NCBI GenBank assembly: GCA_965153455.1
Contig: OZ234493.1
Span: 15,056,213-15,120,212 of the forward strand
DNA: 64,000 nucleotides
Direction: 5' to 3'
Source: Sphagnum compactum
Lineage: Eukaryota
Shown here one piece after another: positions 20,783 to 64,000 of this stretch. Each line of letters begins with the position of its first letter. Within the stretch, counting starts at the first letter, position 1. A model generated the notes under the pieces. That model worked only from the letters and a program-made list of their open reading frames with translations, had not been told where the DNA came from and ran no database searches. The position numbers were made by a program, and so were the translations under genes.

Positions 20783-21477
20783 TTATACATTCTCCTCGTC
20801 TTCATTCCCGCCTTCTGCAGTTCCTGCAAATTAAGAGGGTCCAGTAGTAGTACCATTAGAAAAAAAATTATGTGTCAATAACAATCATGGTTACGTTGGG
20901 TGCTCGCATGACAGCAGGCTTAGGGGGTACCCACAAGAATCTCTGGTTCACATGGTTGGTTCGTCGCAAATCGGGGGAAATTGATTGTACACGCTGTGAT
21001 CATGTGCAGGACACCCATGACGCGGCCATCGTGCATGGTACATGTTTTGTACAAGTTCAATCCCTGGAAGTTTACAATTTCACAAAACTAATCGATCACA
21101 CAGACTTAGTATCTCAAGTGTTTAGTCTAGTACTTACCCATGATTTCTCCAATCCTTGATGATACACGTGATGATGCATTGGCTTCGACTGCGACTGCCT
21201 GCAACTGAGCATCTTGGGGAGGGATGACAATCGGCTCCCGCCCACGTGGAACAAACTCTCGAGTAAGCTTGAGAAGATATCGGAGGAGTTTTACCGATTC
21301 TCTTGCCAGTCGCACTAAGAGCACGAGACTCAGGAAAACCAGGATCAGAACTTCCGCACGTGGATCATCAACATCGAACTGCGGGCTTGGAATCAGCAGC
21401 TGGAGCTCATGGCTGGAGCTCGTCACCGGTGCCATGAGTCGAGGAGGACGTGATCCCGAGCTGGGTGGAGACTTCAT
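20783..21477 (-). CDS. Small single-pass membrane protein, family copy 1 (exons 21477-21138 and 20823-20783, 126 aa)
   Basis: MKSPPSS...EVLILVFLSLVLLVRLARE...GEIM/G-TAEGGNEDEENV*. G|GTAAGT donor and tttgcag acceptor (phase 1) are conserved in the paralogs. Confidence 0.7.
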
Positions 21478-21808
21478 AATCAATCTGTGAGCAGGAGCAG
21501 ATAATCGACAGTAGTGCTGCAGCTCCTCCCCTCCGCCTGCAGCTTGTCCTGCAACAGCAAACAAAACTCACTGGTATAAACGTCGTTGTAGCCACAAAAG
21601 AAGCCTTGAAGATGAAGAAGAAGAAGCTAGTGAACCAAGAATCAAACTTCAAAGGAGTGATATATGTTACAGGGAGTTGGAGCAGGAATGACGCACAAGC
21701 AAGTATGCTTGCTTGCATCCTTGCAAGTTCTTGGAGGAGAAGACCTATTTCTAGACCCTAGGGAAGCAAAAGCAAAACTCTGGAAGAGTTGACAAATCCG
21801 GGACAATC

Positions 21809-23030
21809 CGTCTTTGTTGTCTTGTGGGTACCTACTGGGGGACAATCCACCCTAAACTGTTTTAGGGTGGATTGTCCCAGACTAGGTAGCCACAAGACAA
21901 CAAAGACGCAGTGCATATTATGTTTGCAGGGAGTTGAGAATAATTTGAAAAAAAAATTCACTTCATCAGGGAGTTGCAAGGAAGAACATAATTCCAAAAT
22001 GCAGCCGCTTTAAAAGTACCCATAGGTTATCTGCGTTTTAGGGTGGATTGTCCCAGACTAGGTAGCCACAAGACAACAAAGACGGATTGCATATTATGTT
22101 TTCAGGGAGTCGGGAATAATTTTTTAAAACATTTCACTTCATCAGGGAGTTGCAAGGAAGAACAGAACTCTAAAATGCAGCCGCTTTAAAAGTACACATA
22201 GGTGATCTCTGTTTTAAGGTGGATTGTCCCAGACTAGGTAGCCACAAGACAACAATGCACAGACTAGGTAGCCACAAGACAACAAATACGGATTGCATAT
22301 GATGTTTGCAGGGAGTTGGGAATAATTTGAAAAAAAATTTCACTTCATCAGGGAGTTGCAAGGGAGAACAGAACTCCAAAATGCAGCCGCTTTAAAAGTA
22401 CCCATAGGTGATCTATGTTTTAGGGTGGATTGTCCCAGACTAGGTAGCCACAAGACAACAAAGACGGATTGCATATGATGTTTGCAGGGAGTTGAGAATA
22501 ATTTGAAAAAAAAATTCGCTTCATCAGGGAGTTGCAAGGAAGAACAGAACTCCAAAATGCAGCCGCTTTAAAAGTATCCATAGGTGATCTACGTTTTAGG
22601 GTGGATTGTCCCGGACTAGGTAGCCACAAGACAACAAAGACGAATTGTCCCGGATTGATCAACTCTACCCTAGAGCAAAACTAGGACTTATCAACTCTAC
22701 CCTAAAGCAAAACTCTTTTCGAGTTTTGCTTTAGGGTAGAGTTGATAAGTCCTAGTTTTGCTCTAGGGTAGAGTTGATCAATCCGAGTTTTGCTTTAGGG
22801 TAGACTTGATAAATCCGGGACAATCTGAGTTTTGCTTTAGGGTGGAGTTGACAGATTGTCCCGGATTTGTTGTCTTGTGGCTACCTAGTCTGGGACAATC
22901 CACCCTAAAACGTAGATCACCTATGGGTACTTTTAAAGCGGCTGCATTTTGGAGTTCTGTTCTTCCTTGCAACTCCCTGATGAAGTGAAACTTTTTTTCA
23001 AATTATTCCCACTCCAACTCGCTGCAAACA
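21809..23030. repeat. 176-bp tandem array (about 4.3 units) bounded by hairpins, plus one inverted unit
   Basis: Units start at ttta(g/a)ggtggattgtccc near 21861, 22037, 22213, 22419 and 22596; one has a ~30-bp internal duplication. Perfect inverted repeat 22651-22715/22721-22785. Inverted unit at about 22868-23030. Confidence 0.95.
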
Positions 23031-60553: not shown

Positions 60554-63500
60554 TACACACAAGGATGGAAAACCATCCACAAAATGTACACGGCATGTTT
60601 GGTACAAAAGACACTGGACCTTATATAATGAGGAAGTTTTACTATCTAGATACATGTTAGTCCAATAATAAAAGTATGGCCACTTTTGATTGATTTGAAA
60701 ATAAAACTGATTTAAGACCTTGAAAATTCAAATTATCAGAAGAGTCCTGAAATTTTCAGACATTTAAATTGTACTGTTTCGATAAGTATGTCAAGGTGCT
60801 AAAAGCTTTGGTGGCTATCCACCTGTTTAGTGACTATGATTCATTGGAACTAGTTTTAGGTAGGCCAATTTTAGGTTTTATAAGTCGTTCTTTGGACAAT
60901 TTCAAATTGAAATTTATTTAGTCATTTTAAAATAAAAAGCAATGAAAAAGTGTCGTTTCAAGATATATTTTTTCAACAGCATAGTTACGAGCAAACTTTC
61001 AATGCTTTTTTGCATCCATTTGCATCTCATTTAATCAAATTTGAATTCAAATTGCATGCAATGTCATTAATCATTTTTTGGGACAATTGATTGTCTCTAG
61101 TAGTGCACAACAACACAGAGCCCAAGTATTATAAATATCTCGTATATTTTCAATCAAAACAAAATTAACAAGGGGTGTGTCACACTGTGGCCTTGCCATT
61201 TACAGTAAAAAGTATCTTAAGGCAAAAGAAGAATTATGGAAACTCAAATATTTCACTATGCAAAAATATAATCTTCAAAAAATCCTCTAAAACAAATCAA
61301 AATCCCTCAAGATATTATAATTCTATAACAACTCTCAAGTTTCAATACAAGCCAAAATATCATCTTTTCCAATCCTCATATAGAAACAGACCTATTACAT
61401 AGGGGCCAAAATCCCTTAAATTAGTATACTCTAAAATGAATCTAAACAGAATATCCTTGCCTTGGCACGCAAGGCCAATAAAATACAATAACTTTTATGT
61501 TGAATCAAATTCAAGTGGCATATGATTTTTATTTCCAAACCAATTGCAAATTTGGGTACAAAGAATGACCAATTTTGCCAAATTTTCAAGATCAAAAAAT
61601 GAAAGAAAAGAAAACTCTGATCAAGAGATCAAGATTCAAAGGACATAAAAAATAGAAGAATTGAGACACCAAGCTTCACATATAACCTTTAAGGTACGTA
61701 AATGCTTGTATAATACAATAAAGCACTTGGAGAAATTTCCTATGTGTATTTGGAGGGCCTCCAGCATTATTTTTTTCAGTGCAAAAATTTGTCAAAATGC
61801 GAAATGTTTTAAAAAAAAGCATATTCAGTCACAATATTTTCTCTTTGATTGGGAACAATTATCAAACTTCAAAAAAATATTTTGTAATATTTTCACCACA
61901 TTTGGACTCTGATTTTAGTTTGGTAGCAGTATGAAAAATAATTTTCTTGTTATTTGGATAGGTTCTAAAAACCTGTTGCCAATTAATGTTAAATCCCTCT
62001 TGGGATGCTAGCCAATGATGCAACATCAGAAAATTGAAAAATATATCATTGACCTCAAATAGTCATTTGGCAACACTGATTCACTTCTTTGGCGAATTGT
62101 TTTTTTATTTTTTAAATTGCAAAATTTTCTTTTGGGTGGTGGTTGCTACAGGTCTCTCCACTAGCTTCCTTATTTAATGGGTAGGGTGTTCTGTGCAAGG
62201 GGTATTAGCCCAGGCCCAAAATGGTGACGAACTCTTTTGGGAAGAGAGATTTCATGCACCCAATGGCAAGGCCCGAGCATGCACGCAAGGTGCCTTGCTT
62301 TTTTTCCTTTTAAGTTTTGGGGGGAGCAGGGCGAGGATTTTTTTTCATTTTTCCTTGGTTCCCAATGTGTTCCCAATAGCTTACCTTCAAGTTCTCAATG
62401 GGTTTCCAATATGTTCCCCAAGTTCCCAATGTGTTCCCTAACATGTTCTTCATAGCACCTCACTTTTATCCCATATGTTTTGGCAAATGTTGTCCTCCTT
62501 TCACCTACATAGGTGCGCCAAAGGGGATAAACTCCATACTTCAAAACAGAACCTTCTATTTTGGAGAGCCTCCATTGTTTCACTTTTTCAGTGATGGGCA
62601 AATCAAATCAGCTCGTTGCAAAAAAATAAAATAAAATTTGAACTCGGGAGTCACATCATCCAATTAAGTCAAAATCTGTCTGGGGATGCTGGCCTCTGTT
62701 GCTACGCTACAAAATTGGAATTTTTTTAATTTTTAAAAAATAAAAAAATGAAAAACACAGTGGCCCTAAGTATACCCCCTGAAATGCACCTCCTAGAAAA
62801 GAGGAGGGTTAAAGAGGTAGGCATAAATTGGACCCTCCTGTTCCACAAATACTAGGCATAAGGTCCCTCACTCCCCTGTGCCCTGGGAGTCTGCATTTGT
62901 TTTGGCTTACTGTAAGGTTTTGCCTCATGCTTTGAGTCAGCATTTCTTTTACTGGCAAGTTTTCGCCAAATTTCGACCTATGCAAAGGAATTTTCACCGA
63001 AAAAAAATGACCAGAATTCACCAGATTTCGAAGAAGCTAATTAATTCAAATCATCACAATTTTATGATAGCTTCTAGTAGGTAGCCACAAGACAACATAG
63101 AAACAGTTCCCCTTTTTTTCTACTTTCATATCTAACATGTAGCCAAATTTGGCTAAACTATTTTCTGGATGATCGCCACTTTGACTGCATCACAAAATCC
63201 TTAAAGAAACCCTGCTTCAAGTTGAGTGAGGCTGCTAACACGGGGATATTCCCAAGATGTGCTGAGCTGGGCAGGGCCGTAGCTTATTTTGAGATTGCCC
63301 CACCCAGGGCTCAAGCCTGAAGCCTGTACAAATTTACATATTATTTATAGGACTCATCACAGGATGATTTTGCGGCTTTTTTCATACCATATTTTATGTT
63401 GTAACCAGTAGGATGTGTGGGCCAACTCACATTAAAGTTAATGCAGTGGCTAGCTCACATTAAAGTTAATGCAGTGGCTAGCTTCCTAAAAATAACATTT

Positions 63501-63847
63501 TCACTTTATTCCTGCTCCAACTCCCTGCAACGTAATATATGGTGTGCATAGTCTCCCAAGCATCCTGTCACGACTCCCATACATAATATGTAAATCTGCA
63601 CATGCTTGACTTCATTCTAGCTCCTTTGCAGTTGGGCTCTTGATTCACTTGCTTCTTCCCCTGCACATGATTTCATCGCTACCGTCCCTCCTGAACAACT
63701 TCTTCTTCTTCATCTTCAAGGCTTCGTTTGTGGCTACAACGACGTCTATATCAGTGGGCTTTTTTTACTGCAGCAGGAGGAGCTGAAGGAGGAGGGGAGG
63801 AGCTACAGCACTACTGTCGATCATCTGTTGCTGTTCACCAATTGATT

Positions 63848-64000
63848 ATGAAGTCTCCACCCAGCTCGAGATCACGTCCTCCTCGACTCATGGCACCGGT
63901 GACCAGCTCCAGCCATGAGCTCCAGCTGCTAAATCCAAGCCCGCAGTTCGTTTATGAACCACATGCGGAAGTTCTGATCCTGGTTTTCCTCAGTCTCGTG
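63848..64000 (+). CDS. Small single-pass membrane protein, family copy 4 (partial, runs off the window)
   Basis: MKSPPSSRSRPPRLMAPVTSSSHELQLLNPSPQFVYEPHAEVLILVFLSLV, open to the window end. Confidence 0.65.
   Translation, partial: MKSPPSSRSRPPRLMAPVTSSSHELQLLNPSPQFVYEPHAEVLILVFLSLV

Follow-up and report, generated by a model that had tools for sequence, protein, structure and literature searches.

A stretch of 64,000 nucleotides (nt) from the peat moss Sphagnum compactum (GenBank assembly GCA_965153455.1, contig OZ234493.1, positions 15,056,213 to 15,120,212 of the forward strand) contains four homologous copies of a small two-exon gene, here designated c1 to c4. The whole stretch is called the window, and all coordinates refer to it. 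A first-pass annotation had described the copies as an unrecognised family of single-pass membrane proteins. Its count is correct: blastn with the c3 locus, self-comparison of the window, and tblastn with annotated relatives return exactly four copies and none further. The span quoted for the family, 20783-64000, does hold these copies, but is mainly unrelated DNA between them.

The gene structure had been read from conserved splice signals, and splicing of c1, c2, and c3 reproduces it in every respect: two exons, the donor, the acceptor, introns of 247-325 nt, and the endings of all three tails (Table 1). The junction is in phase 1 in each of these copies, and donor and acceptor are common to all three complete copies. 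The start codons had also been described accurately, c2 having Ile at the second Met and c3 having CTG for the first ATG. Exon 1 of c1 is 88% identical to residues 1-114 of the S. magellanicum model P0009, while c2 is 94% identical to P0033. The stop of c1 sits at a Lys codon of its relatives, which makes the c1 tail shorter than theirs by a few residues. The copies have a hydrophobic helix and the motif RGREPI(V/I)IPP, and c3 has Gly at the sixth residue of the helix as it was first quoted. The leader upstream of c1 is probably a 5' untranslated region or core promoter. Antisense open frames cover exon 1 in c1 and c3, but none of at least 80 amino acids (aa) is present in c2; these frames have no Pfam match.

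Table 1. Positions of the gene copies, their exons and introns, and the duplicated segments in the 64,000-nt window.
Feature	Coordinates	Strand	Description
c1, gene span	21477-20783	-	BLAST extent 21527..20656
c1 exon 1	21138..21477	-	ATG at 21477; 113 codons + 1 nt
c1 intron	20824..21137	-	314 nt, GTAAGTAC...TTTGCAG
c1 exon 2	20783..20823	-	Tail GTAEGGNEDEENV; 126-aa protein, end EENV
c1 conserved leader	21478..21626	-	About 135 nt 88-98% identical to c2
c2, gene span	45341-45944	+	BLAST extent from 45291
c2 exon 1	45341..45650	+	Short subfamily; in-frame deletions of 27 nt and 3 nt; second Met replaced by Ile
c2 intron	45651..45897	+	247 nt, GTGAGTAC...TTTGCAG
c2 exon 2	45898..45944	+	Tail GIGERDANGEGTNVE; 118-aa protein, end TNVE
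c3, gene span	53352-54075	+	BLAST extent 53312..54399
c3 exon 1	53352..53694	+	CTG replaces first ATG; first usable ATG 53397 (residue 16)
c3 intron	53695..54019	+	325 nt, GTAAGTAC...TTTGCAG
c3 exon 2	54020..54075	+	Tail GTTEGGDAFQDEENIKVE, end IKVE; E 3.5e-5 to P0009 tail
c4, gene span	63848-64000	+	BLAST extent 63798..64000
c4 partial exon 1	63848..64000	+	First 51 codons, truncated by window end; 3 differences from c2 in 153 nt
Inverted segmental duplication, 4.3 kb	17204..21527 (c1 arm) vs 58156-53312 (c3 arm)		Identity ~76-86%; from self-comparison
Direct duplicate carrying c4	60550..64000		Matches c2 locus (36888-38211 + 43450-45493), 90-94%
Extra ~5.2 kb upstream of c2	38212..43449		Absent at c4 locus; RVT_1 remnant 41126-41686

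Relatives in Sphagnum and searches beyond the genus

A search with c1 exon 1 found 57 protein clusters at E<=0.01, and those with a species name are all from Sphagnum: S. troendelagicum, S. jensenii, S. magellanicum, S. fallax, and S. balticum. Similarity to the named models ranges from E 2.7e-56 to 1e-37, with 74-92% identity. Unlabelled metagenome matches are assumed to be Sphagnum DNA and absence outside Sphagnum is judged on protein sets; on these terms the family is restricted to the genus. The eukaryote-annotated Sphagnum models are 118-134 aa long, and the junction residue and the three kinds of tail of the window copies recur in them. For example, CY35_07G021300, CY35_07G022300, CY35_17G036200, and CY35_02G004900 from S. 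magellanicum and BDL97_07G015100 from S. fallax have the two exons, junction, tails, and three length classes of the window copies, although c3 differs from the annotated models in having no first ATG and c1 in ending a few residues early. The splice junction of the independently annotated models is that of the window copies, and the annotated C-terminal tails map by tblastn onto predicted exon 2 (54019-54072, 45882-45941, and 20824-20777). The relatives P0009, P0011, and P0033 each serve in tblastn searches of the window, which recover all four copies. None of the window copies is identical to any database representative examined. Invariant or near-invariant columns of the family alignment concentrate at residues 21-95. 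Among the metagenome entries, many run unspliced into the intron and stop after a few codons of it. One relative, P0064, has an intron that can be read through in frame for about 90 codons, and lacks the sequence ahead of the REPIV motif and with it the membrane helix; this variant is absent from the window.

The description of the family as unrecognised does not hold: it belongs to no named protein family, but its members are already annotated as Sphagnum proteins, which GenBank calls "hypothetical protein" or leaves unnamed. Because these gene models are part of the public Sphagnum annotation, the family was already recognised, as hypothetical proteins only. When six of these gene identifiers were searched for in the literature, no paper was returned that mentions them. 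In Supplementary Table 5 of PMC9946827, the named genes fall in three orthogroups: OG_22620 (five members in S. divinum, one in S. angustifolium), OG_22359 (five and one), and OG_22369 (three and one). The same table lists no member of any of the three in its 34 other species. The count of four given by the first-pass annotation is right for the window, and that table holds 13 members for S. divinum and 3 for S. angustifolium. Judged by sequence, the window family is composed of members of these Sphagnum orphan orthogroups.

Searches for more distant relatives were negative. Pfam has no match for the three window proteins at E<=1 or for four annotated relatives at E<=10, apart from a chance match to HemY_N (E 0.32), and a search of the ESM Atlas by features gave no usable match. 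A profile search of the PDB returned four matches (E 0.007-1.8) to designed proteins or to the 30-residue PsaM helix, the best of them (E 0.007) being a designed repeat protein; these are read as matches of composition. An exhaustive search of the 31-sequence profile against 1.84 billion representatives gave eight matches, all from the family itself. Longer or fused forms of the protein were considered and rejected, since the two matches of this kind are not fusions: each is a prokaryote-style frame that runs through the upstream leader and the intron.

Three kinds of protein offer comparisons. UniRef names the cluster of P0008 "ATP synthase protein MI25". MI25 and ATP synthase subunit b have a membrane helix at the N-terminus and a charged helix behind it, and the family shares this order of elements; however, neither P0008 (E<=10) nor the window proteins (E<=1) have a Pfam profile match, and assignment to MI25 or subunit b was rejected. 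Proteins of the phospholamban and sarcolipin type, which have up to about 100 aa, combine one membrane helix that leads into an amphipathic cytosolic helix with the absence of an enzymatic domain. The family resembles them in size, in its single membrane helix and amphipathic helix predicted to be cytosolic, and in having no enzymatic domain, but differs in that no PDB entry resembles it by sequence or profile. Orphan gene families are common in bryophytes. The window family is like them in being confined to one genus, short, free of domains, tandemly amplified, expressed at a low level, and under relaxed constraint, although bryophyte orphan genes are a class rather than a family. Bryophyte gene-family space is treated in PMC12513842.

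Selection, expression, and age

In each pair of copies, conservation is highest in exon 1. Introns had been described as diverging more than exons, which is clearly so between c1 and c2 (Jukes-Cantor distance 0.096 in exon 1 versus 0.536), but only moderately so between c1 and c3 (0.084 in exon 1, 0.155 in the intron, and 0.161 downstream). For the c1-c3 pair, the nonsynonymous p-distance (0.084) is lower than the distance of intron plus flank (0.142, p=0.02), and the synonymous distance (0.117) does not differ from that of intron plus flank (p=0.64). The claim that coding indels keep the frame is borne out by all three events in exon 1 (3, 3, and 27 nt), compared with multiples of three in 12 of 84 non-coding indels (P about 0.003). 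Indels are also sparser in coding sequence, with 2 in 381 nt between c1 and c3 versus 23 in 784 nt of non-coding sequence (p=0.008). The GC content of the exons is 0.52-0.54 versus 0.43 in the intron, and by codon position it is 0.66-0.69, 0.40-0.44, and 0.46-0.49. By these indirect tests, the reading frame is maintained, and selection is weak.

Expression and age can be approached through the annotation of S. divinum and S. angustifolium. In PMC9946827, the pipeline that yielded the models of both species kept models without homology only if they had transcript coverage and less than 20% overlap with repeats, and it used stranded RNA-seq. These rules give indirect support for a spliced, stranded gene model. 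The split between the two species is dated in PMC9946827 to ~16 million years ago (Ma). As each of the three orthogroups is present in both species, their frames have been open for a long time. The same source places Ks peaks of whole-genome duplications at 0.406 and 0.643. By the NG86 method, dS among the window paralogues is 0.08-0.21, and 0 for c2 and c4. Since these values lie below the Ks peaks, the window paralogues postdate those duplications, barring homogenisation by gene conversion.

The interpretation favoured here, with a little more confidence than doubt, is that the copies represent a gene of recent origin, confined to Sphagnum and amplified in tandem, which encodes a single-pass membrane micro-protein and is under selection that preserves the frame and is otherwise relaxed. 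Several results weigh against it. The first-pass annotation had named a dN/dS ratio (omega) near 1, if joined to a lack of spliced transcripts, as grounds for abandoning the gene, and the first half of that pair is what the window copies show, their omega being indistinguishable from 1. A three-taxon GY94 likelihood analysis of c1, c2, and c3, which covers 116 codons and has low power, gave an omega of 1.03 with F3x4 codon frequencies (likelihood-ratio test against omega=1, p=0.92) and 0.88 with equal frequencies (p=0.64). The core of the helix has an omega of 1.0-1.2. Pairwise NG86 ratios among the window copies are 0.52-0.94 on small counts, and dN/dS is not significantly below 1 among c1, c2, and c3. 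Such values give no direct sign that the amino-acid sequence is under selection. Between c1 and c2, the 135 nt that precede the ATG match the coding part in their degree of conservation, so gene conversion or constraint at the nucleotide level could explain part of the conservation of the exon. The start ATG of c3 is lost, c1 stops early, and at least 6 of 34 examined relatives are frame-changed or internally deleted (P0046, P0052, P0054, P0057, P0064, and P0065). Among the values given in Supplementary Table 6 of PMC9946827, ten S. divinum members score 0-2.5 (bare values) in eight treatments, mostly below 0.6; a conserved neighbour gene scores 13-34 and other neighbours 0.04-3.4. Finally, no homologue, domain, or structural match points to a function.

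Much of this list would also fit a transcribed proto-gene or decaying duplicate, with a frame that is open mainly through recency, perhaps with low transcription and splicing, and a protein that has no selected function. An omega near 1, very low expression, the lost start and early stop, and the frame-shifted or deleted relatives all favour such an origin, as does the difference in copy number between the two species (13 versus 3). In a neutral substitution simulation both derived lineages remain open in 8.8% of runs, so openness by itself is only mildly improbable under neutrality. This explanation is nevertheless considered unlikely, if the most serious of those weighed against the favoured one. 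It does not account well for exon 1 indels that are all in frame, or for an indel density and a nonsynonymous rate below those of the flanking non-coding DNA. Splice signals are retained across subfamilies whose introns otherwise align at ~60-66%. Each of the three subfamilies is present in both S. divinum and S. angustifolium, which also argues against mere recency, given the date of their split in PMC9946827.

A function at the nucleotide level, as a non-coding RNA, regulatory DNA, or gene-conversion tract in which the open frame is incidental, is improbable. Synonymous and nonsynonymous sites are about equally conserved, and c1 and c2 have 88-98% identity in the leader that precedes the ATG, both of which suit this explanation. 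So does a core of ~107-132 nt in the intron (21045-20922 in c1, 45750-45856 in c2, and 53790-53921 in c3), which is better conserved across subfamilies than the remaining intron. However, the core has no convincing shared fold. It was tested as a structured RNA and rejected, as single-sequence folds disagree, the consensus is weak (-14.4), and Rfam has nothing to match it. In the whole window Rfam gives no match at gathering score and one chance-level match near c1 (E 0.16), and a tRNA search found none. In-frame indels and a coding-like periodicity of GC would not be expected of a non-coding element.

Duplication history and surrounding DNA

The copies lie in duplicated blocks of differing extent. 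The 4.3-kb inverted duplication links c1 to c3, and the direct duplicate links c2 to c4 through three pairs of segments (36888-38211, 43450-44948, and 45195-45493 versus 60550-61877, 61847-63413, and 63702-64000, respectively), at 90-94% identity. The extra sequence between the first two of these segments at the c2 locus carries an RVT_1 remnant and is absent from the c4 locus despite its 90-94% identity elsewhere, and is thus probably a retroelement insertion. A further ~1.5 kb upstream is common to c1, c2, and c4 by self-comparison. The co-duplicated flanks have no convincing open frame and no Pfam match. The frames located at 17.3-20.4 kb, like those that precede c1, c2, and c4, have a non-coding appearance, and the idea that the flanks hold a second gene or are a transposon was rejected.

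That a transposable element carries or has captured the open frame, and is thereby the source of the multiple copies, is very improbable. In its favour, the S. divinum members are spread over three chromosomes in the table of PMC9946827, and repeats and a retroelement remnant are found nearby. On the other hand, no transposon domain occurs in any of the 83 open frames of at least 90 aa, nor in the copies or their shared flanks, and the sole RVT_1 match belongs to the insertion specific to the c2 locus. No terminal repeats common to the copies were found. The duplicated blocks vary in extent, as local segmental duplications do. In the same table, 9 of the 13 S. divinum members have gene numbers 021000-022800 on chromosome 7, and the four chromosome 7 members with coordinates examined lie at 2.60-2.87 Mb. 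The pipeline of PMC9946827 also dropped models that overlap repeats. Duplicated blocks without common terminal repeats are read as segmental duplication, not transposition.

Other features of the window were seen alongside the copies. A non-significant fragment of 56-60 nt at 49545-49605 (+) weakly resembles the region of exon 1 that encodes the membrane helix (blastn 76.8% over 56 nt, E 8e-6; tblastn E 1.9-3.5); it could be the remains of a fifth copy, or the likeness could be due to chance. A tandem array at 21859-22647 and 22866-23036, with a unit of 176/206 nt, about four copies, matches of 91-95%, and an additional inverted copy, begins ~380 nt upstream of the c1 ATG and is absent at the other copies. 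Hairpin or inverted-repeat elements lie ~275-530 nt upstream of the start of each complete copy, at 21804-21913 (53-nt arms, c1), 44948-45066 (38-nt repeated palindromes, c2), and 52821-53061 (70-nt arms, c3). A dispersed repeat pair, 1664-2380 and 51399-52118, is 87% identical over ~720 nt and unrelated to the gene family. Self-comparison shows further local tandem or direct repeats at 12470-13147, 36145-36610, and 59888-60232.

Two further features of the window are of other kinds. Between c1 and c2, a multi-exon gene at 30689-33848 (-) has matches to Methyltransf_33 (four pieces, E 2e-20 to 3e-5) and then FGE-sulfatase (two pieces). Methyltransf_33 is a histidine-specific methyltransferase domain, and its pairing with FGE-sulfatase is that of fungal-type ergothioneine synthase Egt1. 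An open frame at 8084-8377 (+) has a sub-threshold match to HHH_2 (helix-hairpin-helix; 23.7 bits versus a cut-off of 27) and is probably an exon of an unrelated gene.

Predicted protein and its possible role

The architecture first proposed for the protein, with a hydrophobic helix, a basic amphipathic stretch, RGREPI(V/I)IPP, and an acidic tail, was found again in the sequences and in an AlphaFold2 model. The model, built on a 31-sequence alignment, predicts a single helix at residues 39-75 and the remainder at low confidence. The mean predicted local distance difference test (pLDDT) score is 61 overall, and 89, 95, and 88 for successive ten-residue blocks of residues 41-70. The Kyte-Doolittle maximum for a 19-residue window is 2.0-2.4 at about residues 40-62, and the helical hydrophobic moment is high at about residues 53-81. 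In the model each protein has exactly one hydrophobic helix of bilayer length, and both of its ends are predicted to be disordered. The first 23 residues include 12-13 Ser, Thr, or Pro, 3-4 Arg or Lys, and 0-1 acidic residues, and this N-terminus may be an organelle transit peptide. In all six proteins compared, the helix has an acidic flank of 15 residues on its N-terminal side (net -2 to -4, with 0-1 Lys or Arg) and a basic flank of equal length on its C-terminal side (net +2 to +5, with 3-6 Lys or Arg). Under the positive-inside rule, this bias in charge suggests a signal-anchor with the N-terminus out and the C-terminus in.

If the favoured reading of a young membrane micro-protein gene is correct, the four window copies would be paralogues of a Sphagnum-only family that spread by local tandem and inverted segmental duplication. 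Each intact copy would have two exons, be transcribed at a low level, and be spliced in phase 1. Its product, if translated, would be a protein of ~118-134 aa in which residues ~42-58 are predicted to span the membrane; beyond them the helix would run on to residue ~75, there basic and amphipathic and adjacent to the membrane. As a predicted signal-anchor protein without a cleaved signal peptide, it would direct its Ser/Pro-rich N-terminus of ~40 aa to the lumen or outside, and its basic helix, RGREPIxIPP motif, and acidic tail to the cytosol. Selection would hold the frame open while most amino-acid changes are tolerated, and some copies would be decaying. A candidate role for the product is that of a small accessory or regulatory membrane protein; alternatively, the gene may still be gaining a function.

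A more specific version of this history is conceivable, but improbable. The family may have been born in peat mosses, either de novo or by divergence past recognition, and been amplified in subgenus Sphagnum (13 members in S. divinum versus 3 in S. angustifolium), with the frame and the membrane helix fixed and the rest free or driven to change. Its N-terminus would then be extracellular and glycosylated, and the protein would serve a trait specific to peat mosses, such as interaction with the microbiome at the cell surface. An open frame with a fixed helix and a changing remainder is seen in membrane-anchored proteins of biotic interaction or reproduction. In this version, the SPP, AP, and SP motifs of the Ser/Pro-rich N-terminus would be sites of hydroxyproline glycosylation.

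The finding is an ordinary one for a bryophyte genome, and with the gene models already public it matters little as it stands. Its worth is as a clean, small case of the origin and multiplication of a lineage-specific gene in a keystone peatland plant, with three subfamilies common to species that split ~16 Ma, strongly unequal copy numbers between subgenera, and a frame that has been kept at an omega of about 1. As a simple single-pass membrane protein, the predicted product should lend itself to tagging and deletion.

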